From IMG/VR virus record IMGVR_UViG_3300012971_000020, positions 6,928 through 70,927 of that record: a stretch of DNA of 64,000 bases; one strand, given 5' to 3'. The translations under genes and the position numbers were made by a program. Under the pieces are notes generated by a model. That model did not search any database and was not told the origin of the DNA. It worked only from the letters and a program-made list of their open reading frames with translations. This DNA comes from a virus (taxonomy: Duplodnaviria; Caudoviricetes). Shown here in pieces: positions 13,308 through 32,213 of the stretch. Position 1 is the first letter of the stretch; each line of letters begins with the position of its first letter.

Positions 13308-13405
13308 TACTGAACAACTCCTTCTTCCTAGGGGTGTTTGAGGGGTGGGAATCAGGGGTGAGGGCGGGCGGGGCACCTGTGTGAAGCTTCCGCCCGCCCT
13401 CACGT

Positions 13406-13741: not shown

Positions 13742-14671
13742 TCAGGCCCGAGCCGCAGCCGGCGCGACCGTACGGGTGGTCGTGGGCTGGGTGGGCGTGG
13801 GCGGCTCCTCGGTGAGAGGAGCACCCTCGACCAGGTTCGGCTCCAGGATGTGCAGGGCCTCGTTGACGCCCTGCTGGATGCCGATCCTGACCTGACCCTG
13901 GTCGTAGGTGGCCTTGAAGTCCTTCGCGTTCAGAGCCGAGTTCTCGCGAGCCTTCCAGGCGTCGAACAGGGAGTTGGTGGTTCCCTTGCTGCCCTTGCGC
14001 ATCTCGTCGAGCGCGTAGATCTTGCCAGCGACCTGGGACTTCTGCTTCTTGTCCAGGTCCGTACGCTGCAGCTCGGTGTTCATCTCGCGCAGCTTCACGT
14101 CCAGCTGCACCTTCTGGTCGGGCGTGACAACCCGAAGCAGCGGGGCACCATCGCCACCGTTGCCGTTGCCGTTCGGCTTGTGCGCGGTGGGCTCGAGGAT
14201 GTCGAGCTTGCCGAACACCAGCAGACCGAGCACCCAGACCAGCGTCACGCCGGCGATCACCGGGTGACCGAAGGCCAGCGACGTGGCGACACCGGCGACC
14301 GTGCCGAAGCACATCTTCACCGGCCACGTTGCCCAGTTCCAGGCCGTGGCTCCTGCGTTCTTGACGTTGGTCCAGGCTGTTCTGGTGGCTGGGGGTACGT
14401 GCTCCTTCATCCAGGACCAGGCCGAGCTGGCCTTCTTCTTGACCCAGTGGGCTGCGTTCTGAGCCTTGTGCCAGACCCAGGTGGCTGCGGACTTGACCTT
14501 GCCCCAGAACCAGGACCAGCCACGCTTGACGTGCTGTACCACCGTGGTTGCTGCCTCGGTGGTGGTGACTACGGCACCGCGCATCCATGCGCGAACGCCC
14601 TCAGCCACGTCGGCGGATTCCCCATTGACCAGGTCAATGTTCGGAACCGCCTCAAGAGGTGCGGTTGACAT
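13742..14671 (-). CDS. Membrane protein with Trp-rich amphipathic ~11-mer repeats
   Basis: VKRGWSWFWGK/VKSAATWVWHK/AQNAAHWVKKK/ASSAWSWMKEH repeats followed by a hydrophobic hairpin. Confidence 0.7.
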   Translation of the reverse strand: MSTAPLEAVPNIDLVNGESADVAEGVRAWMRGAVVTTTEAATTVVQHVKRGWSWFWGKVKSAATWVWHKAQNAAHWVKKKASSAWSWMKEHVPPATRTAWTNVKNAGATAWNWATWPVKMCFGTVAGVATSLAFGHPVIAGVTLVWVLGLLVFGKLDILEPTAHKPNGNGNGGDGAPLLRVVTPDQKVQLDVKLREMNTELQRTDLDKKQKSQVAGKIYALDEMRKGSKGTTNSLFDAWKARENSALNAKDFKATYDQGQVRIGIQQGVNEALHILEPNLVEGAPLTEEPPTPTQPTTTRTVAPAAARA

Positions 14672-14691: not shown

Positions 14692-14730
14692 GGACATGCA
14701 GAAACCCCCTGGTCATAGGGACCAGGGGGT
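14692..14730 (-). terminator. Terminator-like hairpin in leader L1
   Basis: 11-bp stem 14704-14714/14720-14730 followed on the minus strand by TTCTGCATGTCC. Confidence 0.65.
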
Positions 14731-14792
14731 TGGTGTGCCGGGTTCGTTCGCCCCGGACTTCAGATGTCCGGGTGCATTCGTCCCGGGCACAT
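14692..14792 (-). ncRNA. Putative structured leader or small RNA L1
   Basis: Long imperfect hairpin 14734-14791 between the promoter and the terminator. Confidence 0.4.
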
Positions 14793-14796
14793 GACC

Positions 14797-14825
14797 ATTA
14801 TATCACATACACGACATATTGGCCA
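14797..14825 (-). promoter_or_regulatory. sigma70/SigA-type promoter PL1
   Basis: TGGCCA-17 nt-TATAAT with an extended TG; spacer contains ATGTCGTGT. Confidence 0.7.
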
Positions 14826-14828
14826 CAC

Positions 14829-15185
14829 TTATGTGATGCGATTCCCGCGTTCCTGCGCGTGTCGCTGGTTGTCCTCCTCCCGGTGCTCGTAGCACAGGGT
14901 CTTGTACCAGCCATGCGGGGCTTCGTTCTCACCGGGCTGGCCACACCACTCGCAGATGGTGAAGGACAACGCCTCCTGCTCGTGTACGTAGTCCCGGGCC
15001 TGCTTGACCGAGGACTCCGGAGTGCCCTCCGTCGCGGCCCAGTAGAACCGGAGACCGCCGAACTTCTCCTTGATCTGCAGCACCTCGTACGGTCCGCAGT
15101 AGTCCAGGATTCGCGCGTCGATCTCATCGATCAGCGGCTGCCAGCCGTCACCTACGTACTGTCGTTCTGTAGCGAGTTCAGCCAC
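14829..15185 (-). CDS. Hypothetical phage protein (QIKEKFGGLRFY family)
   Basis: Characteristic GW..LI...QIKEKFGGLRFY...CEWCG...LC pattern; aggag SD. Confidence 0.7.
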   Translation of the reverse strand: MAELATERQYVGDGWQPLIDEIDARILDYCGPYEVLQIKEKFGGLRFYWAATEGTPESSVKQARDYVHEQEALSFTICEWCGQPGENEAPHGWYKTLCYEHREEDNQRHAQERGNRIT

Positions 15186-15394
15186 TTGGACTCCTTCAGC
15201 TCATAGATGTTGGTCACCTCGGCGTCCTCCGTCGGATGCCGAGCCTCGCAGTTGTCGCAGTACGGGGAGTCGGGAGACTCCACGTCGTTGGCGCACCGGT
15301 TCAGATGCGTGCCACTCGGAACCGGGTGGATGATCACGCAGATACACCGGTGAGTCTGACCCTCCTCACGCCTCGGGATCGGGATCTCGCTCAT
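15152..15394 (-). CDS. Hypothetical Cys/His protein
   Basis: 80 aa, CxC...C...CxxC pattern. Confidence 0.55.
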   Translation of the reverse strand: MSEIPIPRREEGQTHRCICVIIHPVPSGTHLNRCANDVESPDSPYCDNCEARHPTEDAEVTNIYELKESKWLNSLQNDST

Positions 15395-15659
15395 GGAGCT
15401 CCTTCCGGTTCTCGAACTCGCCCTTGATCCGGATCCAGGACTGACATGCGTGCTGGAACCAGATCAGCCAGCCGATCGCGGTGTCGCGATCCAGGACCGA
15501 GTTGATGTGCGGGAGCGGGATCAGCTCCATCTGTGGCTTCGAGAGCCCACCCGAGTGGACCTCGATCTGATCGCTGATCCCGTCCCACCGGAAGGTGAGC
15601 ATGCGCTCGTGATCGTGGAAGGCCATGTAGGTGGTGACCTCAGTGAACGCTTGCGTCAC
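15366..15659 (-). CDS. Hypothetical protein
   Basis: 97 aa, operonic. Confidence 0.55.
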   Translation of the reverse strand: MTQAFTEVTTYMAFHDHERMLTFRWDGISDQIEVHSGGLSKPQMELIPLPHINSVLDRDTAIGWLIWFQHACQSWIRIKGEFENRKELHERDPDPEA

Positions 15660-15751
15660 TGCCCACCCCCAGCACGACCATCAGCCAGAGCCCGACCAAG
15701 AACAAGCCGGCAACGAAAGCAGCAGATGAGTGCCCAGTTCGTCTTGCTCAT
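15656..15751 (-). pseudogene. Small membrane protein gene, apparently frameshifted by one extra base
   Basis: MSKTNWALI is followed, after skipping one T, by AAFVAGLFLVGLWLMVVLGVG in GC3-rich codons; the unshifted frame is T3-rich and implausible. Confidence 0.4.
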
Positions 15752-16008
15752 GAGGCCAACCAGCTCTTCTCGGTGATGTCCTGACCCAGGCCACGACGCA
15801 GGAACCTGGTCACGGCTTTGGCTGCCTCGTACCGATCGACATGTGGTCCGTCGGGTTTGGGCCAGCGGCGCTGTCCGAACTCCATCGTGGGAGTGACGGG
15901 GGCTGTGCGGACGACACGCCCACGCAGGACAGTGCATTGTTCGCCCGGCTTGGCCCGACACATGTGAACAGGGCAGTCCACATCGATCGCATTGACCTTG
16001 TCGTTCAT
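15748..16008 (-). CDS. Zn-finger protein (Cx4CxAxPGxxC...HxxR)
   Basis: CPVHMCRAKPGEQC...HVDR. Confidence 0.65.
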   Translation of the reverse strand: MNDKVNAIDVDCPVHMCRAKPGEQCTVLRGRVVRTAPVTPTMEFGQRRWPKPDGPHVDRYEAAKAVTRFLRRGLGQDITEKSWLAS

Positions 16009-16205
16009 GGGATGTGCTCTCCCTTCGCCAGGGACTCGATCAGCCTGTCGACTGCCTTCTTCTCCTGTGGCAGCAGCGTGTTGTACATGGCGATGATGCG
16101 AGTGGGCTCGGAGTCACCGGTGGAAGGCTGACGCTTCCGGCGCTCATCGGCCTCCATGCACCGTGCGATCCGCTCGAGGGCAGCGGCGACCCGTCCATCC
16201 GGCAT
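16005..16205 (-). CDS. Hypothetical protein
   Basis: 66 aa, coupled at both ends. Confidence 0.5.
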   Translation of the reverse strand: MPDGRVAAALERIARCMEADERRKRQPSTGDSEPTRIIAMYNTLLPQEKKAVDRLIESLAKGEHIP

Positions 16206-16426
16206 CAGCGGTACCCCTTCCCGGTCCAGGTGTGGCAGTTGCCGCAGTAGCCCTCGCGTACGTCGTTCGGGTTGTGCGAGGTCATTCCGCACTGGGGGCA
16301 GGTGAACGTGTTCTGAGGGTGCTCGGAGCAGTGTCGGCCCGAGCAGGGGGTGATCACTCCGGCCACGATCTGGCTGGGGTGCTCCGGGCGGATCACCCGG
16401 CTGTCGATTGTGCGGTGGTTCGCCAT
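16205..16426 (-). CDS. Zn-ribbon hypothetical protein
   Basis: FTCPQCGMTSHNPNDVREGYCGNCH; SD upstream. Confidence 0.65.
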   Translation of the reverse strand: MANHRTIDSRVIRPEHPSQIVAGVITPCSGRHCSEHPQNTFTCPQCGMTSHNPNDVREGYCGNCHTWTGKGYR

Positions 16427-16496
16427 CTCTTCTGTCTTCCTCTCTTGGATGGGTGAGGGCCCGGGTAGATGTGCACCCGGGCCCTCGCTGGTGGAA

Positions 16497-16754
16497 TCAG
16501 TCGTTGATCCCTGGACCGTCCATCGCTTCCTCGATGGTGAGCAGGGCATCGGACATGCCGTTGACCCAGCCCTCGGTCGTGTTGCGGTTGCGACGCTTGA
16601 CCCTGCCCTCGGTGAGCTTTCTCAGCTCCTCGTGCTGCTTGCCGCGCAGCTTGATGAGCGCGAGGTTGATGCGCTCGAGGCACTCGATCGCCTCTTCGCC
16701 GTCCTCCACGTCGAGGACGAGGTGCATCGGGACATCGGCGCGGTGCTTACTCAT
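16497..16754 (-). CDS. Hypothetical protein
   Basis: 85 aa, operonic. Confidence 0.55.
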   Translation of the reverse strand: MSKHRADVPMHLVLDVEDGEEAIECLERINLALIKLRGKQHEELRKLTEGRVKRRNRNTTEGWVNGMSDALLTIEEAMDGPGIND

Positions 16755-16914
16755 GGATGTGAGCCTTCGCGCTGATCAGCCGGACTCCGTGTACACCCTG
16801 CAGTGTCTTGGTGGGGGTAGACGGGGGTTCCTTGCAGGGCTCGCCTGGCTTGGCTTTGCAGACCGTGCACTCCTGTGCCATGGCCAGCTCGAACAGCGTG
16901 GTGTAGTCGTTCAT
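16747..16914 (-). CDS. Zn-finger protein (CxxCxAxPGxxC...HxxR)
   Basis: CTVCKAKPGEPC...HGVR; gaggag SD. Confidence 0.65.
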   Translation of the reverse strand: MNDYTTLFELAMAQECTVCKAKPGEPCKEPPSTPTKTLQGVHGVRLISAKAHIHE

Positions 16915-17057
16915 TGACTCCTCATCTCTACCAACAGTCGTCCCCAGGCCGAGCCGGTCGGCTCCCACAGGTGGCGGACACCACCGCCAGCGCGGCGCAC
17001 CGTGTAGTGCACCCGGTCGGGCTGGCTCGCGTGGAACCAGACCTTGAGAACGGTCAT
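16911..17057 (-). CDS. Hypothetical 48-aa protein
   Basis: ATGA coupling on both sides; below the track length cutoff. Confidence 0.45.
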   Translation of the reverse strand: MTVLKVWFHASQPDRVHYTVRRAGGGVRHLWEPTGSAWGRLLVEMRSQ

Positions 17058-17392
17058 CGGACGATCACCGTCTCGTCGTCGACGATCTCCAGCTTGTGGT
17101 AGTGCTTGTACTCACCCGAGGTGGCGGAGGCGATCATCTTCGCTGAGTCCATGACCAGCGGGTTGACCTGGATGTGCTTGTGCAGGGGCTCGGCCTTGGC
17201 CTTGACCCTGGGTGTGCGCTTCTTGGTGACCGCCTTGCGGATCCTCCGCGGGGTGGCCACCTCGATCACCGGTGCCTCCTTGTCCGCGGCGTTCGCGGCC
17301 AGGTTGGACTTCGGGGCGTCACCGGTGGTGGTGGTGTACGCCAGTTGTGAGCCGGACTCCGGCTCGGTGTTGCCTGTCTTCCTGTCAGACAT
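17054..17392 (-). CDS. Hypothetical protein
   Basis: Basic central region, C-terminus KLEIVDDETVIVR; purine-rich SD. Confidence 0.6.
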   Translation of the reverse strand: MSDRKTGNTEPESGSQLAYTTTTGDAPKSNLAANAADKEAPVIEVATPRRIRKAVTKKRTPRVKAKAEPLHKHIQVNPLVMDSAKMIASATSGEYKHYHKLEIVDDETVIVR

Positions 17393-17409
17393 GACTCTCT
17401 TCTCTCTCT

Positions 17410-17697
17410 TCATGGAATGACCTGGGGCAGATGCTCCGGGCCGAGGTAGTGCTGACATCCGCAGTACATGCCGGGTCGTTTGTCGCTCCACCAGACCCGG
17501 TAGAAACACTTCCCGGTGTCCTGGTTGTGGAACGCCATGTGGTGGCCGCAGCCACAGATGGCGTTGAGGTCTCCCATCCTCAACTCCGTGGATCGGCCAG
17601 ACCCCCGCCGGCCGAGCCAGTAGCCGATCAGCACCAGCGGTGCTGCCAGCCATGCGCCCAGGATCACGTTCCCTAGGGCGCTGAAGATCACGGTCAC
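17410..17697 (-). CDS. Membrane-anchored Cys/His protein
   Basis: N-terminal TM, then CGCGHHMAFH...C...CGCQHY. Confidence 0.55.
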   Translation of the reverse strand: MTVIFSALGNVILGAWLAAPLVLIGYWLGRRGSGRSTELRMGDLNAICGCGHHMAFHNQDTGKCFYRVWWSDKRPGMYCGCQHYLGPEHLPQVIP

Positions 17698-17702
17698 GAC
17701 GG

Positions 17703-17897
17703 CTACTCGTGATCGAGCATGTCGTCGAGCACCGAGAACGGAACCTTGTCGTTGAAGATCAAGGGCCTGTCCGAGGACTGCTCGTTGATCTTCTGCTGCT
17801 CGCGGTACATCCGCCAGCCGAACTCGTAGCCGAACGCCCAGCCGCCGGTGGCGAAGGCGATGATCAGCAGGATCCACAGTGGGGTGTTCATCTTCAT
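17703..17897 (-). CDS. Small membrane protein
   Basis: N-terminal TM; gaaagg SD. Confidence 0.6.
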   Translation of the reverse strand: MKMNTPLWILLIIAFATGGWAFGYEFGWRMYREQQKINEQSSDRPLIFNDKVPFSVLDDMLDHE

Positions 17898-17978
17898 TCG
17901 TTTCCTTTCATGGGGTGGGGTGGAGCAGGCCAGGGCAGTCTTGTCCGGGTCGTCCTGGCCTGCTCCGGCACTACGTGA

Positions 17979-18467
17979 TCAGTGCTTGATCACGAGCTCA
18001 TGGCCGTAACTAGCGGCCAGGGTGGTGGCGATGTCGACCACGTTCGCGATGTTCAAACCACCGTTGAACAGTGCGGTCTCGTCCTCCTCGATCCCGATCA
18101 GCTCGCAGGCCCGGAACTCGATGTCATGGACCTCGCCGAAGATGTCCATGCAGTTGTCGGCGGTGACCTCGTCGCCAACCTCCGGCTCCTCGTCGTCGGT
18201 GATCATCTTGTCGCCGTACATGACCACGATCGTGCCGGCCACACAGCCCGTGGACGGGCAGACGACGTGCCGGCTGAGCTCGGTGGTGGAGTCGACCTTC
18301 TCCTTGGTCACGGTGCCTGAGCCCCAGCTGGCCTGCATCCAGCGGAGCCAGCCCTTCTTCTCCGGGCGCTCAAGTTCGGGGTGCTTGAGGTAGTAGCGCT
18401 CGAGCTTGTCGTCGTCGTATGCGTGTTGTACTGCTTCCTGCAACCGAGTGAACTGCTTGGTATCCAT
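17979..18467 (-). CDS. Hypothetical protein
   Basis: CPSTGCVAG motif; start refined after ggaaagg. Confidence 0.6.
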   Translation of the reverse strand: MDTKQFTRLQEAVQHAYDDDKLERYYLKHPELERPEKKGWLRWMQASWGSGTVTKEKVDSTTELSRHVVCPSTGCVAGTIVVMYGDKMITDDEEPEVGDEVTADNCMDIFGEVHDIEFRACELIGIEEDETALFNGGLNIANVVDIATTLAASYGHELVIKH

Positions 18468-18583
18468 CTCTGCCTTTCCTGGTAGGGGTGGAGCTGCCAG
18501 ACTGGTAGCTCCTTTCATGGTTGGGCAGGGCCCCGGGCGGATTGACTCCCTTCCCGGGGCCCTGTTGATCCCGCTTCTACAGG

Positions 18584-19033
18584 TCACACATGAGCGTCGA
18601 TGGCGGCGGCGACCGCCTCGAGCTCTGCTGCCTCGTTCCGAGCGTTACGGGCAGCCATCCGGAGCATGGCGGCAAGGGCCAGATCGGGCTCCTGCCCTGC
18701 CGCCTTCTCCCAGCGCTCCGCGATCCGGTAGAGACGAGTCGAGGCGTGACGAGCCTGGTTGGACTCGCCACGCTTGGAGGTCTCGTTCCATCCCGCGCGG
18801 AGCGTGTAGTGGTTCTTCGGGGCCGGCACGCTGACCACCAGGTCCGGATCGAACAGGTGGAGATCGAGCGCAGCGTTGCAGACCCTGTTGGGGGACAGGC
18901 CAAGTGACAGTGCCACCTGGTCGTAGCGCCCACCGTTGGGGTTGGTGAGCAGCCATGCCTTGACCCAGGTCATGGCGTCGAACCTCTTGGAGCCGGGCTG
19001 TGGCTCCTGTCGCCCAGTCACGACAAGGGTCAC
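18584..19033 (-). CDS. Putative (winged) HTH DNA-binding protein
   Basis: YDQVALSLGLSPNRVCNAA helix-turn-helix-like segment. Confidence 0.5.
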   Translation of the reverse strand: MTLVVTGRQEPQPGSKRFDAMTWVKAWLLTNPNGGRYDQVALSLGLSPNRVCNAALDLHLFDPDLVVSVPAPKNHYTLRAGWNETSKRGESNQARHASTRLYRIAERWEKAAGQEPDLALAAMLRMAARNARNEAAELEAVAAAIDAHV

Positions 19034-19863
19034 TTCCCCTCACCGAGCAGGACCCGCAGCTCCTCCTCGAACCTCGAGTCGGAGATCGGGAGGGCGAAGC
19101 CACCGGCCCAGGACTCGAGCTTCCGAGCGTTGTACCGCAGCGACTCCGCCACCTTGATGGCGGCGTCGGCACCTTCACTGTCGTGCTGGTAGTTCGCCAC
19201 GATGTCGTCGACCATGGCCGACACCTCGAGCAGCACACCCAGCATGGCCAGCCCACCGCGCAGCCGCGGGGGTGAGGACTCGGTACCTCGAGCCTCGCGT
19301 TCCTTGGCACCGCGGGCGATCGACTGCTGCATCGCCCTGCCCGCGTCGGACTTGGTGACCGCCTTGTTCACCGCCCGGAGCAGGTTGGGGTTGTCCACGA
19401 TCACCTGCGCCACGGCATCGGGCTGCGCCTCGATGATCGCCGCGATCCGGTACTTGGTCGTACCTTCGACGGTGTCGGCCCAGCCCTTGCCGGTCAGCTC
19501 CTTGGTGAACTCGCGCAGCGTCAGCCCAGCCTTCTCGGCCTGGCCGATCTTGCGGAGCAGAGTGCCGTCCACCTCGATGTGCTGACGTGCGATCTCGATC
19601 GCCCAGCGGGGCTTGATCTTGATCCGCCTTGCCTTGGAGACACCCAGGAAGGCAGCCCCAGCCTGCTTGCGCTGCCGGACGTAGGAGTCCGACTGGCCGG
19701 TGATCTCCATCACCAGCACCTTGGCTGCGGTGGCCTTCTTCGAGTCGGTGATCCGACCCAGTTCTGTGGTGAGCTGCCACCAGGCACCTCGCCACTCGCC
19801 GTCCGCCTTCCGACGGTCGGCCTCTGCTGACTTCTCAGCCAGCGCCAACTGCTTGATATCCAC
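19030..19863 (-). CDS. Hypothetical protein
   Basis: Helical; start refined to GTG at 19863 after aggagg. Confidence 0.65.
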   Translation of the reverse strand: MDIKQLALAEKSAEADRRKADGEWRGAWWQLTTELGRITDSKKATAAKVLVMEITGQSDSYVRQRKQAGAAFLGVSKARRIKIKPRWAIEIARQHIEVDGTLLRKIGQAEKAGLTLREFTKELTGKGWADTVEGTTKYRIAAIIEAQPDAVAQVIVDNPNLLRAVNKAVTKSDAGRAMQQSIARGAKEREARGTESSPPRLRGGLAMLGVLLEVSAMVDDIVANYQHDSEGADAAIKVAESLRYNARKLESWAGGFALPISDSRFEEELRVLLGEGK

Positions 19864-19978
19864 GATAGGCAATCCTCCTAGGTTGTATGTCGTGTGAATA
19901 CCGGATTCGTTTGATCTTGTCTACAAACAGAAGGACCCGGACCTGCCGCACGGGGATACGACAGGTCCGGGCCCTCGT

Positions 19979-20977
19979 TCAGGCAGCCCGATCTCCCCCG
20001 ATGATCGGAACGCCTGGCTGCTGACACTCGCGGCGCATCGAGTAGTTCGCCATCTGCTTCAGCGCACCCTCGTTGTGCCGGATCGCCAGCAGCTGACCTA
20101 CCCAACCATCGGGTGTGGGTAGGACACCATGCTCACGGTCATACATCTCCGAGGCGACACACAGGTTGGCCAGCCGGCACCCGTGCTCGTCGATCAGGGA
20201 GATGTTCCCGTGCACTCCGCCACCACCGCGGAGCTCGTACAGACCGCCCTCTGAGCCCCGCACATGGATGCTCTCGGCTTCCACCCACTGGACTCGCTGT
20301 TCGGCCGTCAGAAGCGACAGGAACAGCTCCTCGGCCCTGTTGTGGGCCTCGGTCGCCTGCGCCTGGAGCCGTTGCTGCTGCTCCAGGCGTCGACGGTTCT
20401 CAGCCTCCCGTCGACGCTGCTCGATATCGCGTGTGCGCTGCACCTCGGCTTCGATGACCGCGATGGCTTCGCGGGTCGGCAGGATGGCCTGACGAGCAGC
20501 CTCCTCGACATGGGCGATGGCGGTGTTCCATCGGTTCCAGGTCTCGGCCTGTTCGTCGGTCCAGACGTACCGGAAGTGGTTCCCGGTAGCCGTGGTGGTG
20601 GTCGCGGTCCAGCTGTTCCAGATCTCATCCCTGGTCACGTTGATCCACCCCGCTGTGTTGGTGGTGGTGAGCGTGATGTAGGGCGTGTTGACCGAGGTGA
20701 TGGCAGCACCACCGGCGGTGATGTTCCAGTCGCCCGTGGTGTAGGTGATCCCACCGGTCGGGGCGTACCTCTGCCATGACTGGTCGGAGCCGATCCGTTC
20801 CCAGCCCTGATCGCCTGGCAGAGCTCGAACCGCAGCCATGCGCGCTGGGTGCGTGCGCCGGCCGTACAGGTACCGGCGATGTCGTGCCGGCCAACGCTGG
20901 TCCAAGCAAGGCTGGCCTTCCACGGCTCGACATCTCGGACATGCCGCTGCCCAGACCTTCCGCCGTCGCCTAGCCAC
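19979..20977 (-). CDS. Multi-domain hypothetical protein: N-terminal Zn finger, Thr/Trp-rich linker, coiled coil, Cys-containing C-terminal domain
   Basis: CPRCRAVEGQPC...HPAR; EQRRREAENRRRLEQQQ; HGNISLIDEHGCRLANLC. Confidence 0.65.
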   Translation of the reverse strand: MARRRRKVWAAACPRCRAVEGQPCLDQRWPARHRRYLYGRRTHPARMAAVRALPGDQGWERIGSDQSWQRYAPTGGITYTTGDWNITAGGAAITSVNTPYITLTTTNTAGWINVTRDEIWNSWTATTTTATGNHFRYVWTDEQAETWNRWNTAIAHVEEAARQAILPTREAIAVIEAEVQRTRDIEQRRREAENRRRLEQQQRLQAQATEAHNRAEELFLSLLTAEQRVQWVEAESIHVRGSEGGLYELRGGGGVHGNISLIDEHGCRLANLCVASEMYDREHGVLPTPDGWVGQLLAIRHNEGALKQMANYSMRRECQQPGVPIIGGDRAA

Positions 20978-21212
20978 CGACCAACTGCTTGGTCATGATG
21001 ATCTTCGACTGGGTCGGGTCGAACTCCCGGATCACCTCGCCCTGCTCGCCCTTCGGGTCGACGGTGTAGGCGATCATGCCCTTGTCCTTGGCCTTGTGGA
21101 ACGCCTCCTTCGCGGCCTTGACCTCGTCCTTGTCCCGCGGATCCCACATGATCCGCAGGTCCCCGTCGGCGGTGGGGATGGACAGCATGCTCTTCTCGAG
21201 TACTTCAGTCAT
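20970..21212 (-). CDS. Small protein ending in di-glycine (...KQLVGG)
   Basis: 80 aa, gaaagg SD; C-terminal GG; overlaps the next gene by 8 nt. Confidence 0.7.
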   Translation of the reverse strand: MTEVLEKSMLSIPTADGDLRIMWDPRDKDEVKAAKEAFHKAKDKGMIAYTVDPKGEQGEVIREFDPTQSKIIMTKQLVGG

Positions 21213-21308
21213 CTGTGTTGCCTTTCTGTGTCGGAACAAAGTAAGGCCCCGACCTGATCACCCGTGGGAATCAGGCCGGGGCCTAGGTTCACCCCGGAGC
21301 GGCTCTGA

Positions 21309-21611
21309 TTACTCCGTGGTGAGATCGTGCGGGCACCCGACGTGCCCGGTGGTGATGGGCTTGAAGGACAGCGTCTGGTCGTCCTTCTCCAGCCCCTGCA
21401 GCGTGACCTGCACGACGTGCGTGTGCTCGACCGGGGGCTCGACCATGCCGGCCAGCATCTGCGCGTACTGCCGAGTCGCGGTACCGATGGTCGGGTGGTA
21501 CATGTCCTTGCTGTCTCCGGTGCAGAACAGCCAGACCACGCGGTAGTGGTCAGCGCGAGAGTTCACGCTCGAGGGCGCGCTGGTCTCGATGACGCTGTTT
21601 GATTCGGTCAA
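21309..21611 (-). CDS. Hypothetical protein
   Basis: TTG start after gagagg. Confidence 0.55.
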   Translation of the reverse strand: MTESNSVIETSAPSSVNSRADHYRVVWLFCTGDSKDMYHPTIGTATRQYAQMLAGMVEPPVEHTHVVQVTLQGLEKDDQTLSFKPITTGHVGCPHDLTTE

Positions 21612-21858
21612 GGTTCAGTTCCTCTCTCATGGATTGTCTGCCCTTGTGGAACCCGTGCTCGTAGATGACCTTGATCATCGCGATCCGCTGGACGTGGAAC
21701 CGGACTGGTAGCCCGGTGCCCTCCAACTTCTCGCCGTCTGCACGGCGGATGCAGGGCTCACCCGTCTTGGCGTGGCAGAACTCGCAGGGCAAGTGCCGCG
21801 CCAGGTACTGCATCACCTCATGTGGCACTGGAACGATCTGTTCCCGTTGGGGTGCCAT
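21550..21858 (-). CDS. Zn-finger protein (CxxCxAxxGxxC...HxxR)
   Basis: CEFCHAKTGEPC...HVQR; strong SD. Confidence 0.6.
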   Translation of the reverse strand: MAPQREQIVPVPHEVMQYLARHLPCEFCHAKTGEPCIRRADGEKLEGTGLPVRFHVQRIAMIKVIYEHGFHKGRQSMREELNLDRIKQRHRDQRALERELSR

Positions 21859-22063
21859 CTCCTCTCCTTCCTGGTTGATGGGTTCAACCTCCACCACCCA
21901 CGCCGTGCCATAGCCGGACCCCCGACCGGCAGGCACCACATCCCCCCAGATGCAGGCGTGGGTGATGGGCCATGAACCCATCGTCATGACGGCAGAAGAA
22001 CCGGCCCGGGAGAGCATGCCCCACGGCGTGATGGGCGGGCCGGTCCTACGTCTACTGCGGTGA

Positions 22064-22474
22064 TCAGTCCATCACCATGTACAGCACTGGCGCGCCCGGT
22101 CCGTCCTGCTGGACCGACCAGTTGTAATACACACCGGACACACTCATCGAGTGCGCCGGCTGGATCGTGGTGCTGTCAGCCACCTGACGCATCAGGCCCA
22201 GCCCACCGTGCAGTGCGTTCACCATGCAGCCGGCGGCGTGGAACTCTGCCGGTGTCCTGGCTGCCACCCAGAGCTCGGTGTTGTGGTCCTTCAGCCCTGC
22301 GCTACCTGGTGGCGGGTCGCACTTCTCGTACGCTGCTCGGAAGTCCGGCCGAGCGCCCGGCCCGGCGGGGGTAAACCGGAGCCGGGCGACGGCCAGGAGG
22401 GCGGTGGCGGCAACTGCCACCGCCAACCCGAGGGAAAAGACGACGTACATCGCGCGCCGCTCCTGCTGGGTCAC
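22064..22474 (-). CDS. Membrane-anchored exported protein
   Basis: N-terminal TM (VVFSLGLAVAVAATALLAV); GTGA coupling. Confidence 0.6.
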   Translation of the reverse strand: MTQQERRAMYVVFSLGLAVAVAATALLAVARLRFTPAGPGARPDFRAAYEKCDPPPGSAGLKDHNTELWVAARTPAEFHAAGCMVNALHGGLGLMRQVADSTTIQPAHSMSVSGVYYNWSVQQDGPGAPVLYMVMD

Positions 22475-22848
22475 ATCTCCTCCTTGCCGGGGATGACGAC
22501 CGCGTGGGGACGTACCTGAGCGACGACGTGCTCGGTCACCGCGTCGAAGAACTGGTGGATCCCAGCCTCGACACCGGTGCCGATCCTGCGCTTGGGCTCG
22601 TCGGAGAGCACGAACACCGAGTAGTCGGTGACGTTCGAGATCTCCCAACAGCCCGGGATGTGGAAGCCGGCTCCGATGACCAGCTTCTCGAGGTACTCCG
22701 TACCCCTCTCGCTGACGTGCTTGGTTGGCCTGTCCGCCCCTATCCGCTTGGCCACGGAGTGGATCACACCCTCGGTCTCGAGAACCTTGATCTCGTAGGT
22801 CGAGTTCAGGGTTTCGATCCGGTAGATCGTGCTGATGTTGATTCGCAT
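22471..22848 (-). CDS. Hypothetical protein
   Basis: 125 aa, first gene after leader L2. Confidence 0.65.
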   Translation of the reverse strand: MRINISTIYRIETLNSTYEIKVLETEGVIHSVAKRIGADRPTKHVSERGTEYLEKLVIGAGFHIPGCWEISNVTDYSVFVLSDEPKRRIGTGVEAGIHQFFDAVTEHVVAQVRPHAVVIPGKEEM

Positions 22849-22877
22849 GGGTCTTCCTATCCCTTGGTTTGTTGGTT

Positions 22878-22920
22878 GGGCATGCGAAAGCCCCCGGCAG
22901 TCTCGGGTCTACCGGGGGCT
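22878..22920 (-). terminator. Terminator-like hairpin in leader L2
   Basis: Stem agcccccggtag/ctgccgggggct (G-U wobble only on the minus strand) followed by TTCGCATGCC. Confidence 0.65.
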
Positions 22921-22970
22921 CTCAGGCCTCAGCGTAACGCACACATTCGGGTATGCGGTCGCTGAGACAT
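22878..22970 (-). ncRNA. Putative structured leader or small RNA L2
   Basis: Hairpin gtctcagcg..cgcatac-ccgaat-gtgtgcg..cgctgaggc between the promoter and the terminator. Confidence 0.4.
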
Positions 22971-22976
22971 ACCTAT

Positions 22977-23005
22977 ATATTACCATATTCAGGCTATACA
23001 GGCAA
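22977..23005 (-). promoter_or_regulatory. sigma70/SigA-type promoter PL2
   Basis: TTGCCT-17 nt-TAATAT with an extended TG, in an AT-rich island. Confidence 0.7.
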
Positions 23006-23018
23006 TATATGCACTACA

Positions 23019-23387
23019 TCAGAGGGTTTCGAGCCCTTTTTCGGGGTCGAAACCGGTCCTGGCGATCTTCTCGGCCTTGGCGAAGGTGTCCAGCACCTCC
23101 TGCTTGTCCACGGCCCAGTTGTCGTTCCAGTCCGGGATGGTGTTGGCGCACGGGTGGTTCTTCTTGAAGACCTGCTCCATCAGGTCCTCGAGCTCGACCA
23201 GCTCGGGGACATCCCGACGAACGATCTGGTACTGCTGGTTGTCGTAGCCACGGCTGTACAGGATCGCGCCGATCGCGCAGACCTGCCGGCCGTTCGGACC
23301 GCGCTCGCTGCCGCGCCACCAGCCGTGCTCCTCGAGGTACTCCCGAGAGTCGGCGAGCCAGTCGGCCACTCGCGTCATCATGCCCAT
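23019..23387 (-). CDS. DUF6197-like protein
   Basis: GW.RG...VCAIGAI...IPDWND...QEVLDTF pattern. Confidence 0.6.
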   Translation of the reverse strand: MGMMTRVADWLADSREYLEEHGWWRGSERGPNGRQVCAIGAILYSRGYDNQQYQIVRRDVPELVELEDLMEQVFKKNHPCANTIPDWNDNWAVDKQEVLDTFAKAEKIARTGFDPEKGLETL

Positions 23388-23746
23388 CAGTCGTCCCTCT
23401 CGATCATCTTGATGGCGTGGTCGAAGGTGTCGACCACCTCGGTCTGGGTCCGACCGGGGAAGTCGTTCCAGTTCGGGATGCCGTGCCAGGTCATCCCGGT
23501 CACCTCGACCGCTGCTGCGATCAGCGTGGCGTTGGCGATGCCCTCGGATGCGTCCATGCACACCTTGAACTCACCGCTGCTCAGACTCTCGTTCCTGATG
23601 CCGTAGTAGGCCATGTTGATGGCCTGGGCGGCACATACCTGCTTGCCGTCGTCGGACATCGCCGTGCCTTGCGTCCAGCCCCTCTTGACCAGCTCCTTGG
23701 CCCGGGTCAGGACGTTGATCACTTGCTCCCTCAGTGGTGCGTACAT
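23387..23746 (-). CDS. DUF6197-like protein (tandem paralog)
   Basis: GWTQG...VCAAQAI...IPNWNDFPGRTQTEVVDTF. Confidence 0.65.
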   Translation of the reverse strand: MYAPLREQVINVLTRAKELVKRGWTQGTAMSDDGKQVCAAQAINMAYYGIRNESLSSGEFKVCMDASEGIANATLIAAAVEVTGMTWHGIPNWNDFPGRTQTEVVDTFDHAIKMIERDD

Positions 23747-23770
23747 CTGCTTCCTTTCATGGTGGGGGTA

Positions 23771-24238
23771 CTACTCGTCGGGCTCATCCGCGACGTGGGT
23801 GAGCTCCTTCGGATACATCACGACCATCTGGTCGCTGCGTGCGGACTCGGCGGCGGTGACCGTACGGTTCCCCAGCCACCGGTCCACGGTGTCTAGGAAG
23901 GTGGTCAGAAACGACGCCTCAGCGTCCTCTGGATGCTCGTCACCGGGCGTCCAGCCGGTCCAGCGTGTGACTAGCACGCTGTGTCCTTCCTCGGCCTGCT
24001 CGCGGGTTGCGTACCGCATGCAGTCCAGGTCCCTACTCGAATCCGGACCGAAGACCATCGACTCGAAGATCAGCGGCGGACCCTGGCCGAAGCTGTGGTC
24101 GATGCCGATCCACACCGTGCTGATGTGGACACCGCCGGGCAGCTCGGTCCGGCCGATGATCCGTCCGCTGGTGTCTGAGAACAGCCGACCCCACTCGTAC
24201 ATGTCGATCGGCTGACCCTCCATGCCGTAGTAGGTCAT
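23771..24238 (-). CDS. Conserved hypothetical phage protein
   Basis: ISTVWIGIDHSFG.GPPLIFESMVF...RYAT...GH pattern. Confidence 0.65.
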   Translation of the reverse strand: MTYYGMEGQPIDMYEWGRLFSDTSGRIIGRTELPGGVHISTVWIGIDHSFGQGPPLIFESMVFGPDSSRDLDCMRYATREQAEEGHSVLVTRWTGWTPGDEHPEDAEASFLTTFLDTVDRWLGNRTVTAAESARSDQMVVMYPKELTHVADEPDE

Positions 24239-24522
24239 GTCTTCCCTTCGTCCACTCGCTTGTCCCACTCCTTCCGGAAGGCGATCTTCTCCTCCTGGGT
24301 CTTGGGCACCGGATCGTCGTCGTAGGCACCCAGGACGAACTCCAGACCGGCACGGAGCTCGGACTTGGTCGGGTCACGGTTGACCGCCCGCTGGAAGGCA
24401 CGGCGGATCTCCACCACCGCGTCGGCCATCAGGTCGGCCGGCTCATCACCCCAGAGACCGATGGGCTCCTGGCCGGTCATCTGGGAGATGCCGCCGTTGG
24501 TACCTGCGTCCCACCAGCCCAT
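24235..24522 (-). CDS. Hypothetical protein
   Basis: MGWW...WGDEPAD; coupled. Confidence 0.6.
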   Translation of the reverse strand: MGWWDAGTNGGISQMTGQEPIGLWGDEPADLMADAVVEIRRAFQRAVNRDPTKSELRAGLEFVLGAYDDDPVPKTQEEKIAFRKEWDKRVDEGKT

Positions 24523-24995
24523 CACTTCTTCGCCCCTAGCCACGGACCGAGCATCACCTGGGCGTCCTTGAGCGCCGGCTCGAAGCCGTTGTCCCAGGGG
24601 AACAGGCCGTTCATGTCCGGCCAGACCAGCTGCAGGGCCGAGATGTCGCCGAACAGACTGGTGGCCATGGACAACGGGTAGTTGTCGTTGTGCACGTCCA
24701 GCACCTCGACCACCGCCACCGGATGGTTGGCCAGCACCTCCTCGACCAGGCTGTCCGGGGTGAACCGGAAGCCGTCCTCAATCAGGTGTACCGCAGCCCA
24801 GAGCACGCCGTGGGCGTTCTCCTGGGGTAGACCCATCACCACCAGCTCGGGGTGGCTGTAGGTGTGGGTCAAGCCGACCGAGTAGTTCCAGACCACGCCC
24901 GGGTCACCCTGCCGGGGGAAGATGAACATGTCCTCCCAGCCGTGGTCCTCGATGTGCTGGAGGACCGACTCTTCTACTTCCTTCCTACCCTTCAC
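24522..24995 (-). CDS. DUF4262-like protein
   Basis: IEDHGW...WNYSVGL...HPELVVMGLP...ALQLVWPD..G.FPW. Confidence 0.75.
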   Translation of the reverse strand: MKGRKEVEESVLQHIEDHGWEDMFIFPRQGDPGVVWNYSVGLTHTYSHPELVVMGLPQENAHGVLWAAVHLIEDGFRFTPDSLVEEVLANHPVAVVEVLDVHNDNYPLSMATSLFGDISALQLVWPDMNGLFPWDNGFEPALKDAQVMLGPWLGAKK

Positions 24996-25303
24996 GGTTG
25001 TTCCTCTCCTAACTTCTTGCAGGTAGCGCAGACACCGAAGGTGAAGATCACCTGGGTCTCACCTCGCATCCGCACCGTGGTTCCTGTGTAGAAGTCGGTC
25101 GGCCACGGGCAGTAGACACCGCAGTTGTCGCAGGTGCGCTCCCAGTGATCGAACTCCTCCTTGCTGGCGTTCTCCTCGGGCTCGGTGAGCGGAGTCATCA
25201 CGAAGTGCGTGGGCAACTTGCTCACATCCCCCATGTGCTCCTCCATCAGAGCCAGCCGTTGGTCGACCTTGGCGGCTAGCCAGGCCGGCTCTGACTCAGG
25301 CAC
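24992..25303 (-). CDS. Hypothetical Zn-binding protein
   Basis: CDNC...CATC. Confidence 0.55.
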   Translation of the reverse strand: MPESEPAWLAAKVDQRLALMEEHMGDVSKLPTHFVMTPLTEPEENASKEEFDHWERTCDNCGVYCPWPTDFYTGTTVRMRGETQVIFTFGVCATCKKLGEEQP

Positions 25304-25613
25304 GAGCCTTCTCCTCGGCGTAGCGGTAGCCGAGTGCCCAGGCATCCATGTAGATCGCGATCATGAACGCCAGCTCTTCCACGTTGGCATCGGGCCGACC
25401 GACCTGCCGCAGGGCGAACCTGACTCGTTGCAGTGCGGTGTAGGTCAGGGACTCGAAGTCGATCATGGTGGCCACGATCTCGGTGACATCCTTCTTGCCC
25501 TCGCCGGCCTGGCCATCGAACCAGTTGATCGCGCTGGACAGCTTCCAGAAGTCTGGATGCTGCGGGCGCTTGGGGAACCTCGGATCCCGGAGCGGATCGA
25601 TGAACTCACTCAT
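25296..25613 (-). CDS. Hypothetical protein
   Basis: 105 aa, operonic. Confidence 0.6.
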   Translation of the reverse strand: MSEFIDPLRDPRFPKRPQHPDFWKLSSAINWFDGQAGEGKKDVTEIVATMIDFESLTYTALQRVRFALRQVGRPDANVEELAFMIAIYMDAWALGYRYAEEKARA

Positions 25614-25851
25614 CGGGGTTCACCAGCCTGCCGGTGGCATCGACGCCCTCCTTGGTCATCCGCTCCACCTGCTCGGAGATCATCTGCGGGGCGTACTGCA
25701 GCGCAGCCAGCATCACCACCGGGTCCTCGTCGAGATCGAACTCGACGGTGACCCGGACGGTGGGACATCCGATGGTGACCCGGATGCCCATCTCGGTGAG
25801 CTGGGTGTCGGTCTTGAAGATGATGCTGCGGGGATCTTCGTCGATGATCAT
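25606..25851 (-). CDS. Hypothetical protein
   Basis: 81 aa, operonic. Confidence 0.55.
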   Translation of the reverse strand: MIIDEDPRSIIFKTDTQLTEMGIRVTIGCPTVRVTVEFDLDEDPVVMLAALQYAPQMISEQVERMTKEGVDATGRLVNPDE

Positions 25852-26120
25852 CAGTTCATCCCTTGCAGGGAATGGGGACCGGTGATCTCCATCTGGTAGC
25901 CCATCTGACCCAGCACCTCCCTGACCCCATAGAGCAGGTCGCTGATGGCGTCTCGGGGGTCGCCGTAGCCGTGCATCCGCAAGCCGGCCTTGCTGTCGTC
26001 GTTGAAGTAGATAACGGTCTTGATCCCGTCGTACTCACCCTGTTCCAGCGGCGCACACATCTGGTCGATCAGCTCCGACAGCTGGTCGTAGGCCTCGGTG
26101 TGCATGTTCCATTCATCCAT
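25851..26120 (-). CDS. Hypothetical protein
   Basis: 89 aa, gaaagg SD. Confidence 0.6.
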   Translation of the reverse strand: MDEWNMHTEAYDQLSELIDQMCAPLEQGEYDGIKTVIYFNDDSKAGLRMHGYGDPRDAISDLLYGVREVLGQMGYQMEITGPHSLQGMN

Positions 26121-26125
26121 CTTCT

Positions 26126-26350
26126 CTACCTTTCATGGGGGTTCTGGGTGATCACGTAGTCCTGCTCGAGCACGGTCCAGGAGAACTGCGGCTTGCGATC
26201 CGCCTCCCTCTTGATCCGGGCCAGGTTGCCTCGAGGGATGTCCTCGAAGTAGACCCTGCGCAGTTCCTCGTAGGCACCCTCACAACTGCTGTGCAGCGTG
26301 GCGTACAGCCCGGTGTCCTCGTCGTTGGTGACGAGCACGTAGAGCTTCAT
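26126..26350 (-). CDS. Hypothetical protein
   Basis: 74 aa, aggagga SD. Confidence 0.55.
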   Translation of the reverse strand: MKLYVLVTNDEDTGLYATLHSSCEGAYEELRRVYFEDIPRGNLARIKREADRKPQFSWTVLEQDYVITQNPHER

Positions 26351-26358
26351 GACTCCTC

Positions 26359-27606
26359 CTAGATGTGCACGTCGACCACGGCCAGGTACACCTCGTCGGG
26401 CAACCGGTCGAGCAGCTTGGAGAACTCGCGCTCCCAGATGGACTGCTCCTTCTCGTTCGAGACGGTGCCGAACCAGCCCATCCGACCCTGCTCGTGCCAC
26501 TCACCATCGAGGAGCAGCGCGTGGGTCTCGGCTACTCCTGCTCGAGCACGAGCCACATAGGTCTCGCGTCCACCGGTGTGCACGCACCACATCTCGACCG
26601 GGTCGTCCATGAACGGCAGCAGGTTGACCTTCTGCAGGGCCTGGATCCATACCTGGTCGTGGTACTGCCGGCGGGCCTCGTCGATGATCCCGCGACGTTG
26701 GTCGGTCCAGTCCTCGACCGACACCGGAGCGACCACGCTGCGTTGCTCGATCGCCTCCTGCACCGCCTGAGCGTCGGGGGTGCTGGCCTGGGCCTTCAGC
26801 ACGTAGCCGTCGTAGGTCTCGTCCGGGTCCTGGTCGTGGTCGAAGTAGACCCGGCGCACCGTCTCCTGCCAGGACTCCGGCAGCGGCAGACCCACGGTGG
26901 CCTTCTCGAACTCGTCGTAGATCTGGTCGGCCTGAGTGCCGGCCATGGCCCGCATTGCCTCGAAGTCGATGTCGCCCTTGCGCGCGAGATCGGCCCTGGC
27001 CTCGAAGTTCTCGTCCTCGGGATCACCGAAGACGCCACCGTTGCCGAGCACGGCATCCTGGGAGCCGTCGTAGGTCTCGATGGTCTCCTCACCGAAGACC
27101 CGGTCGTCTCCGACTGGATGACCCTCGGTCAGCTTCTTGCGCCACTGGGGGAGCGGGACACCACCCAGGCTGACCTTCGGCTTGAGCTGGTAGAACCCGT
27201 GCCATCTGCCACCGAGCTCCCACCAGTCCCAGCGAGACCGGCGGTTGTAGGTGCACAGGTAGCCGAACCGGTCGTTCTCCGCGTCGTAGATGCCGCGGTC
27301 CCGACCGTTGCTGTGGTACCCACCCACGGCCATCTTGGTCCACTCGTTCCAGGCCTCGAGGTTGCCCTCGGTCACGTACTCCTCGAACGGCGCGATCGGA
27401 CCATCACCATCCTCGGTACACGAGTCTGGGTTGGCCCGGTAGTACTCCACGGCCATCTCGACATGCTGAGCCTCGAGCCACTCGGGGTAGGGCTCGACAT
27501 CCTCTTTGTTCTCATCGAACGGATCGAGCAACCACTCGAGCTGACCCAGTGCTTCTTCTGCTGTTTCCGCATCACGAATCACCACAGTCACTGTGGAGTG
27601 ACTCAT
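26359..27606 (-). CDS. Conserved hypothetical phage protein
   Basis: 415 aa; LDPFDEN...YN..SRWDWWELGGRW...GEWHEQG.MGWFG...VVDVHI pattern; first gene after leader L3. Confidence 0.75.
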   Translation of the reverse strand: MSHSTVTVVIRDAETAEEALGQLEWLLDPFDENKEDVEPYPEWLEAQHVEMAVEYYRANPDSCTEDGDGPIAPFEEYVTEGNLEAWNEWTKMAVGGYHSNGRDRGIYDAENDRFGYLCTYNRRSRWDWWELGGRWHGFYQLKPKVSLGGVPLPQWRKKLTEGHPVGDDRVFGEETIETYDGSQDAVLGNGGVFGDPEDENFEARADLARKGDIDFEAMRAMAGTQADQIYDEFEKATVGLPLPESWQETVRRVYFDHDQDPDETYDGYVLKAQASTPDAQAVQEAIEQRSVVAPVSVEDWTDQRRGIIDEARRQYHDQVWIQALQKVNLLPFMDDPVEMWCVHTGGRETYVARARAGVAETHALLLDGEWHEQGRMGWFGTVSNEKEQSIWEREFSKLLDRLPDEVYLAVVDVHI

Positions 27607-27637
27607 CTTCTCGTCCTCTCATCGGTTGGGGTTATGC

Positions 27638-27691
27638 GGACATGCAAAAACCCCCGCATCCGACGGTATGGCTACCGTCCGACACGGGGGT
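27638..27691 (-). terminator. Terminator in leader L3
   Basis: Long stem with G-U wobbles on the minus strand followed by TTTTTGCATGTCC. Confidence 0.7.
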
Positions 27692-27750
27692 CAGTGCTTT
27701 GACAGGGCTCCTGCCCTCCAGGGAACCGAGGGCAGGCGTCATTAACGCAC
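27638..27750 (-). ncRNA. Putative structured leader or small RNA L3
   Basis: Nested stem gtgc..tgac..cctgccctc/gagggcagg..gtca..gcac before the terminator. Confidence 0.4.
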
Positions 27751-27756
27751 AAGTAC

Positions 27757-27785
27757 ATTATATCAAAAGCACTACAAAAGCACAA
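27757..27785 (-). promoter_or_regulatory. sigma70/SigA-type promoter PL3
   Basis: TTGTGC-17 nt-TATAAT with an extended TG. Confidence 0.7.
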
Positions 27786-27909
27786 TGGCCAGTGACAACG
27801 GATTGTCACCGGCCTTTCGGGAGGATCGATGCCCCGCAGGGCGGGGCCTTACTCGTTGGCCTCCATTGGAGACCTGTGCGGAACCTCCATGAGCTGAGCT
27901 CATACGTAT

Positions 27910-27938
27910 ATATTACTACAAACACGACATGCAGTCAA
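27910..27938 (-). promoter_or_regulatory. sigma70/SigA-type promoter PL4
   Basis: TTGACT-17 nt-TAATAT; spacer contains ATGTCGTGT at the same offset as in PL1. Confidence 0.75.
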
Positions 27939-27940
27939 TA

Positions 27941-28180
27941 CTATACGTGCACTCCCCAGCCGGTGTAGGTGCTCTTGGTGGAGATCATCACCTCGAGGTG
28001 GACCCGACTGATCGACTCGGTGGAGTTCGGCTTAATCAGCGACTCCAGGTGTGCTCGAGACACGACCTCGTTGATGTTGACCTTGAGCAGCGCCTCCAGG
28101 TGCTCCCGGGAAACCACCTCGTTGGGGTTCGGGACCAGCAGCGTCTCGACGTGCTCACGGGAGACTCGTTCCTGGGTCAT
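27941..28180 (-). CDS. Small tandem-repeat protein, 4 x (V/I)SRxH(V/L)Ex(L/M)
   Basis: 79 aa with four ~17-aa repeats; coupled to the upstream structural gene. Confidence 0.6.
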   Translation of the reverse strand: MTQERVSREHVETLLVPNPNEVVSREHLEALLKVNINEVVSRAHLESLIKPNSTESISRVHLEVMISTKSTYTGWGVHV

Positions 28181-32133: not shown

Positions 32134-32213
32134 TACAGACCGATCTTCGTGACAGAACGAACCCGCACCCAGATGTGGTTTCGGGCTCACCCCAACGGGC
32201 GTACGTTGCCAGG

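Follow-up and report, generated by a model that had tools for sequence, protein, structure and literature searches.

What happens at a promoter when a terminator stands between it and its first gene? The question is raised by the leftward arm (minus strand, approximately 10.1-30.9 kb) of a phage genome, the IMG/VR record IMGVR_UViG_3300012971_000020 (70.9 kb, estimated to be 87% complete, with a G+C content of 64%). We analysed a stretch of 64,000 nucleotides (nt) of it, bases 6928-70927, which we call the window and whose positions we use throughout. Here four putative promoters (PL1 to PL4) each point into a short structured leader that ends in a terminator-like hairpin, and we call a promoter with its leader and terminator a unit (U1 to U4, the leaders of the first three being L1 to L3). 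We consider it somewhat probable that the units act by promoter-proximal attenuation, with a stable short RNA as a by-product. A preliminary description of this DNA had counted three such units; PL1-PL3 hold up, and the count was incomplete, PL4 being the promoter of a fourth. The same description called the promoters early, a term that comes only from gene content and is, for the leftward arm, a reasonable guess. The parts of the four units are the following.

14797-14825, minus strand: PL1, sigma-A/sigma-70-type promoter, TGGCCA-17-TATAAT with a TG extension; homologous promoters in six relatives.
14735-14790, minus strand: L1 5' hairpin domain; in its closing stem, transcript nt 1-5 pair with nt just ahead of the terminator.
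14700-14731, minus strand: L1 intrinsic terminator, a stem followed by TTTCT.
14692-14699, minus strand: L1 tail, GCATGTCC, a generic actinobacterial terminator tail.
22977-23005, minus strand: PL2, TTGCCT-17-TAATAT with a TG extension; promoters at the same position in eight relatives.
22926-22968, minus strand: L2 5' hairpin, containing a CAGCGACCGCATACCC-like motif common to the U2 leaders of the relatives.
22885-22924, minus strand: L2 intrinsic terminator, a stem followed by TTTC.
22878-22885, minus strand: L2 tail, GCATGCCC, after the L2 terminator.
27757-27785, minus strand: PL3, TTGTGC-17-TATAAT with a TG extension; the -35 TTGTGC is kept in relatives.
27694-27750, minus strand: L3 5' hairpin domain, paired from nt 1.
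27646-27692, minus strand: L3 intrinsic terminator, a long stem followed by TTTTT.
27638-27645, minus strand: L3 tail, GCATGTCC, after the L3 terminator.
27910-27938, minus strand: PL4, TTGACT-17-TAATAT, promoter of the fourth unit, immediately upstream of PL3.
27780-27903, minus strand: U4 leader, a conserved multi-helix RNA of 125 nt (fold z-score -5.25).
27787-27814, minus strand: U4 terminator-like hairpin of 12 basepairs (bp) at the end of the U4 leader, touching the -35 of PL3.

The three promoters of the preliminary description all read at these minus-strand coordinates. At each predicted promoter we find the sigma-A/sigma-70 hexamers at 17-nt spacing or an extended -10 box. The extended -10 (TGnTAnn[AT]T) is rare: both strands of the 70.9-kb record hold only four matches, and three of them are PL1, PL2 and PL3. 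Over nine genomes (550 kb), which are the window phage and eight relatives described below and whose kinship inflates part of the statistics, there are 19 matches. Twelve of these lie in units, all with a strong terminator 70-135 nt downstream, and the remaining seven lie outside units and have no such terminator. The -10 box of all 25 leaders in these genomes is TATAAT, TACAAT, TATACT, TAATAT or a near variant. For PL4, the two relatives G001 and G003 keep the TTGAC(A/C/T) -35 together with ATGAG at the start region.

The leaders fold as the preliminary description had them, with a structured 5' region and then a terminator. Against dinucleotide shuffles, the whole-leader folds have z-scores of -6.5 (L1), -6.3 (L2) and -4.8 (L3). 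In the window, the 5' hairpin domain starts at nt 1-3 of the predicted transcript (counted from the 7th base past the -10), and the terminator stems, at -24 to -33 kcal/mol, are followed by 3-5 T. Of 12 leaders, 10 have a z-score below -2 even when only the part before the terminator is folded, and in 11 pairing sets in within nt 1-3, where 6.7 would be expected (P ~0.008, which is modest evidence as the sequences are related). The G-U pairs of the L2 and L3 stems, which had been put forward in favour of the minus strand, do belong to the minimum-energy folds of the minus-strand RNA, and they support this orientation because they would be A-C mismatches on the opposite strand. Behind the terminators of the PL1-PL3 units, and behind a Shine-Dalgarno (SD) sequence, the start codons follow within 25-40 nt. 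When each leader was folded up to the terminator loop, no antiterminator fold appeared: the 5' hairpin stayed intact and the 5' arm of the terminator remained mostly free. Since no alternative fold sequesters that arm, termination is the default predicted from sequence. A classical attenuator or riboswitch was considered and rejected, the leaders having no mutually exclusive antiterminator and terminator folds.

What distinguishes these units from other terminators that precede genes? The pattern G{3,}[CT]{2,6}GCATG in a hairpin context has three matches in the window, and these are the three terminators. The preliminary description took the GCATG(T/C)CC tail as a mark of shared architecture, with the caveat that such tails are common in actinobacterial terminators, and it is the caveat that is borne out. 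A scan of IMG/VR with an 18-nt tail pattern gave more than 117 loci; of 118 matches, 111 have a stable hairpin closed by the G-run, mostly right ahead of an SD and a start codon. At other hairpin-plus-T sites of the same loci, CATG follows within 4 nt in 9 of 64 cases, approximately seven times the chance rate. Among 120 tail matches sampled from a collection with a single genome for each species, 95 have the hairpin; most of the cellular matches are in Streptomyces, Kitasatospora, Rothia, Nocardia, Microbacterium and other Actinomycetota, several of them directly after tRNA genes. Because cellular Actinomycetota use the identical hairpin-plus-tail form, the unit terminators are best regarded as host-type intrinsic terminators of Actinomycetota. 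The tail as a special common element of the units was rejected, as it is generic in viral and cellular Actinomycetota alike, and the CCAACC that had been noted before the SD is not conserved in the relatives, which have only a C/A-rich spacer there. The distinctive feature of the units is the promoter ahead of the terminator. A TAYAHT -10 located 40-190 nt upstream of such a terminator is found at one of 79 distinct high-GC viral loci, and that one belongs to a relative of this phage; the hexamer also occurs ahead of such a terminator at 2 of 92 cellular loci, both apparently within coding sequence. We add that the common form across these loci (L006-L122 from IMG/VR, L240-L359 from genomes) is a GGGGG-closing hairpin, T3-5 and (C/T)GCATG(C/T)CC.

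The relatives allow us to ask whether the units are kept. By protein, the closest isolates are Gordonia and Brevibacterium phages, at approximately 35% identity in the DnaE-like polymerase, and the rightward genes include a DnaB-like helicase, a primase, the DnaE-like polymerase, tail-fibre-like proteins, a terminase and a portal; this low identity and the gene context point to an uncultured actinophage. Megablast and blastn against isolated phages (50,697 phage records) gave no match to it. Searches with the 415-amino-acid (aa) protein encoded behind U3, with the terminator pattern and with the polymerase recovered eight related, syntenic and uncultured genomes (G001 and G003-G009), which share 40-80% identity with the window phage in common proteins and 72-79% in the polymerase. 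Scans with the proteins behind units 1 and 2 and with the AAA ATPase of the arm gave no relatives, and a scan with a 16-nt U2 motif gave only the G001 lineage and chance matches.

Units stand at syntenic positions throughout, U2 and U3 in all nine genomes and U1 in the seven whose contigs reach it; U4 was compared in four genomes. All 25 leaders, 60-185 nt in length, begin a hairpin at nt 1-4 (nt 6 in one) and end in a strong terminator, mostly with 5-6 U in the relatives. The interiors of the U1-U3 leaders vary from 20 to 120 nt, and their sequence is not conserved in U1 and U3. Many of the genes next to the units lack orthologues from one genome to another, so that the units form conserved landmarks in an arm whose cassettes vary. 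The preliminary description had noted differing leader sequences in a conserved layout for the three units, and had also proposed looking for structural conservation in homologous phages; it is present, in covarying stems of U1, U3 and U4. The U1 consensus of seven genomes has a 5-bp closing stem and a 13-bp terminator, with 94% of cells paired and 11 of 18 pairs changing on both sides, values reached by 0 of 500 shuffles (slid controls are 38-53% paired). Most of this is in the terminator helix, where 10 of 13 pairs have double changes, 98.9% of cells are paired and again no shuffle of 500 is as good; the closing stem is weaker, kept in the seven genomes with 82% paired and one GC<->AU exchange at 3:3. 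For the U3 terminator, compensatory changes are found in 7 of 15 pairs over the nine genomes, and the U4 fold in four genomes has 36 consensus pairs, of which 11 are compensatory. A short form of U2, present in six genomes, has a 7-bp 5' hairpin in which one stem pair flips GC<->CG, a nearly invariant unpaired loop CGACUGCAU, and an unpaired spacer AUACAGGCGA that is invariant or nearly so. The window's own U2 lacks that spacer.

Two side observations touch the promoters and leaders. The heptamers TGTAGTG and GTGTATG occur in or adjoining the unit promoters in 6 and 5 of 16 cases (0.04 and 0.02 expected); in the window they are at 27776, 23018 and 14812 on the minus strand, at no constant offset from the -10. 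They may be sites for a regulator or overlapping -10-like boxes, and a few copies elsewhere may indicate more promoters, for instance at 43775 (plus strand) in G003 and 12608 (plus strand) in G004. The second is a tRNA-like element in the G006 U3 leader (L376:15635-15700, minus strand), inserted after the 5' hairpin and before the terminator. The Rfam tRNA model gives it 48.1 bits, with a gathering threshold of 29; the D and T arms are canonical, the anticodon loop has just 3 nt, and ARAGORN makes no call. G008, close to G006, has the same U3 leader without the insert, and the window contains no tRNAs.

From the observed sequence features of the units, their rarity, their conservation and their compensatory substitutions, we infer the following course of events. 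A host sigma-A-type promoter would fire into a short non-coding leader, and the nascent RNA would first fold into a hairpin that takes in its own 5' end. A canonical actinobacterial intrinsic terminator would form next, without a competing fold, and a large share of transcripts would stop. The product would be a compact RNA of approximately 85-105 nt in this phage and 60-185 nt in the relatives, probably stable because both of its ends are base-paired. The gene cassette behind a unit would be expressed only from the read-through fraction, and the units would split the 20-kb arm into cassettes, with PL4/PL3 at its head, PL2 in the middle and PL1 ahead of the ATPase cassette. As attenuators, they would also halt transcription coming from upstream. 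Read-through may be a fixed leak, or it may be raised by a phage or host factor. The tRNA-like insert of G006 fits a promoter-terminator slot that serves as an expression site for stable RNA. Of the two outcomes offered by the preliminary description, a small RNA of ~80-110 nt from each unit or antitermination ahead of the downstream genes, the former agrees with the predicted default termination and the ~85-105 nt products, and nothing specific to N/nut or put was found for the latter.

Several points weigh against attenuation as we propose it. The U-tracts are short (3-6 U), and termination could be weak. In the relatives, the same operons hold terminators of the unit type that have no promoter and stand directly ahead of genes, where they occupy the gap from one gene's stop codon to the SD and start codon of the following gene.

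L230:7304, L238:571, L238:337 and L237:19243, minus strand: T-tracts of promoterless terminators in G003 and G004.

Three of the terminators in G004 fall within 1.3 kb, and 9 kb of genes follow before the next promoter. RNA polymerase must therefore pass terminators often, by a leak or by a dedicated mechanism. The poorly conserved interiors argue against a sequence-specific trans-acting RNA for U1 and U3, and the kinship of the genomes inflates some of the statistics. Lastly, promoter activity, termination, RNA stability and read-through are all predicted from the sequence of an uncultured phage.

A possible explanation, which we hold to be rather doubtful and which does not exclude promoter-proximal attenuation, is that the units are chiefly genes for small RNAs acting in trans (in host takeover, anti-defence or phage gene control), their adjacency to genes being secondary. 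The architecture is that of a small-RNA gene, with its own promoter, a 5' hairpin, a single-stranded spacer and a terminator; the short form of U2 keeps its loop and spacer while a stem pair flips; one relative has placed a tRNA-like insert in its U3 leader; and StxS is a precedent for a by-product RNA that gained function. Yet the interiors of U1 and U3 have no such conservation, the conserved spacer is missing from the U2 of the window, and we found no conserved phage target complementary to the U2 spacer or loop in the nine genomes. Each unit is, moreover, closely coupled to an SD and an ATG 25-75 nt downstream.

Dedicated processive antitermination, in which RNA polymerase from the arm head (PL4/PL3) or from every unit becomes resistant to terminators, is in our view unlikely. 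No more likely is the form this would take, with a phage protein or a leader RNA acting in cis as the agent (in the style of lambda Q, HK022 put or conAn2) and the terminators serving to gate the timing and to screen out unmodified polymerases. It would account for the serial terminators of a single arm, several of them promoterless in relatives such as G004; the U4 at the arm head is a conserved multi-helix RNA with its 11 compensatory pairs; the layout, with no gene between promoter and terminator, resembles PR'-tR'; and conAn is a precedent for operon-head RNA systems in Gram-positive elements (PMC8191782). Several results speak against it. Of the three Q families, the two searched for (PF03589 and PF06530) have no gene in the 70.9-kb record, estimated to be 87% complete, no NusG-like gene (PF02357) was found in the genome, and the approximately 40 proteins of the leftward arm have no match to a known antiterminator family. 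None of the 25 leaders matches the consensus of lambda N/nut boxA or boxB (a 5-bp stem with a GNRA-like pentaloop) within one mismatch. An Rfam search, which the preliminary description had proposed, matched no family to the leaders, either at gathering thresholds or in E-value mode. Its analogy to lambda N/nut or HK022 put finds no support in these results, and a shared put-like RNA is disfavoured because the leader interiors, at 20 to 120 nt in U1-U3, are too variable. A leak could also account for the passage of terminators: those of phages often leak and are read through in sequence, as measured in LUZ7.

We would give a still lower probability to the hairpins being mainly elements of RNA stability or processing, with termination minor and read-through constitutive. 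The 5' hairpin would on that account shield the 5' end of the mRNA, and the terminator-like hairpin would shield the 3' ends of upstream messages, a division of roles we find as improbable as the account itself. The pairing of the 5' end from nt 1-3 in 11 of 12 leaders agrees with it, as do the short U-tracts of the window (3-5 U) and the hairpins directly ahead of promoterless genes in the relatives. But the hairpin, U-tract and tail have the same form that cellular Actinomycetota place behind tRNA and other genes, most relatives have 5-6 U, and imperfect U-tracts are tolerated by mycobacterial RNA polymerase.

Equally improbable, to our minds, is that the arm runs on an RNA-based control system new for actinophages. 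In one form of this idea, the U4 RNA would make RNA polymerase resist the 6-8 terminators downstream, in a put- or conAn2-like way with no known protein, and the main role of PL3, PL2 and PL1 would be as sources of short, stable RNAs. In a different version, the terminators close to the promoters would tell freshly initiated polymerases from those arriving from upstream, for example through delayed loading of NusG. The promoter-terminator slots would double as general sites for the expression of stable RNAs, the tRNA-like element included.

Attenuation by leader peptides, with ribosomes on leaderless mini-ORFs (open reading frames, ORFs) disrupting the terminator from the transcript start, is very improbable and was rejected: an ATG, GTG or TTG does stand 5-7 nt past each -10 in the window and two frames stop inside the terminator loop, but the peptides of the window and of G001 are unrelated, the frame crosses the terminator or has no start in some relatives, and the third-position GC of the codons is low for this genome.

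Promoter-proximal attenuation, the explanation we favour, brings in the genes that the units precede. The leftward arm has approximately 45 ORFs, mainly small and few with a family match; those few include the AAA ATPase, DUF4262, DUF6197, two phage zinc-finger DNA-binding domains and a collagen-like/DUF4082 protein. The first genes behind the units, and the end of the arm, are as follows.

13742-14671, minus strand: first gene after unit 1, 309 aa, no family match.
22471-22848, minus strand: first gene after unit 2, 125 aa, no family match.
26359-27606, minus strand: first gene after unit 3, 415 aa, phrog_10079 (a family of unknown function).
9965-10025, minus strand: final terminator of the leftward arm, a strong hairpin with T7 and an ATGCCC tail, kept in relatives.

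Behind the 309-aa gene come a 92-aa ORF and the AAA ATPase gene (11688-13403). A metagenome scan found a single further close homologue of the 415-aa gene, inside an operon; this 66%-identical gene (L150:1349-2542, on a 2.7-kb soil contig) overlaps the ORF that precedes it and has no leader. Because of this missing leader, the U3 unit is tied to its position in the lineage and not to the 415-aa gene. Between the divergent region and PL4 lie four genes (27941-30868, minus strand) that encode proteins of 122 aa, 421 aa (collagen-like/DUF4082, tail-fibre-like), 354 aa (phrog_2448) and 79 aa. G001 lacks counterparts of all four, and its arm begins with the U4/U3 pair, in the divergent region; the four genes look like an insertion upstream of U4/U3.

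Three further regions of the window were noted. At 19897-19976 (minus strand) there is a conventional junction, a stop codon followed by a 20-bp hairpin with a weak T-rich tail; beyond it come an AT-rich stretch that carries a weak promoter-like site, an SD and a GTG at 19872. At the start of the rightward genes, a small membrane protein is followed by a 203-aa collagen-repeat ORF (31145-31756, plus strand), which is longer in G001. Ahead of the replication genes lies an ORF-poor region of 420 nt (31757-32175, plus strand), which is not kept in G001, where extra DNA is present. At its end stands a strong terminator (~32060-32115) whose tail, TTTTATGTCC, is of the same type as those of the units, approximately 60 nt before the next start codon, and this placement is the same promoter-distal logic on the opposite strand.

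How do the units compare with known systems? In ToxIN, a type III toxin-antitoxin system, a promoter, a non-coding RNA, a terminator and a protein gene follow one another, and the terminator sets the ratio of RNA to protein. The units have this same order; unlike ToxIN, there are no tandem repeats in any unit leader, and the downstream proteins have no ToxN-like or other Pfam match. HK022 put and conAn2 of pLS20, in which a structured RNA lies downstream of an operon-head promoter in an operon with several terminators (PMC8191782), share with the arm a structured RNA just past such a promoter and several terminators behind it. They are analogues for the U4 idea only. In the units, the second hairpin is the terminator itself, the interiors are not conserved, neither a sequence nor a model matches, and no ConAn1-like partner was identified.

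A closer analogue than either N/nut or put is, we think, lambda PR'-tR'. There, a constitutive promoter is terminated at once, and the short RNA (6S, or StxS in Stx phages) can be functional (PMC7547250). As in our units, the promoter is followed within approximately 100-200 nt by an intrinsic terminator with no gene between them, a short RNA is the default product, and the downstream genes need read-through. The differences are that PR'-tR' is a single late unit controlled by Q, whereas here we find no Q-family gene and four iterated units in one arm, in a probable actinobacterial host.

Among actinophages, the nearest analogue is Pleft of L5 and D29 (cluster A, as also in StarStuff), which makes a very abundant stable non-coding RNA and loses over 90% of its transcript level ahead of the first early genes (PMC5712189). 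The preliminary description thought the layout unusual for an actinophage, and with this promoter-proximal RNA on record it is less unprecedented than was implied. The L5 region is approximately 500 nt with no evident stem-loop terminator, whereas the leaders described here have 60-185 nt, explicit terminators and several sites; blastn gave no match to the right-end region of L5 and D29 (50,697 phage records). The timing and dosing of early genes in actinophages are poorly understood, and the L5/D29 case offers no visible terminator or mechanism. The lineage described here is a compact version that can be read from the sequence: each of four short units shows an explicit promoter, then a 5' hairpin and a terminator of the host type, and the nine genomes supply natural compensatory variants of them. 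At approximately 150 bp, the units suit synthesis and assay with mycobacterial or streptomycete RNA polymerase, and they could become parts for the control of gene dosage in actinobacteria. Next to PR'-tR' and Pleft, what is new is the iteration of compact, conserved promoter-hairpin-terminator units in an actinophage lineage.

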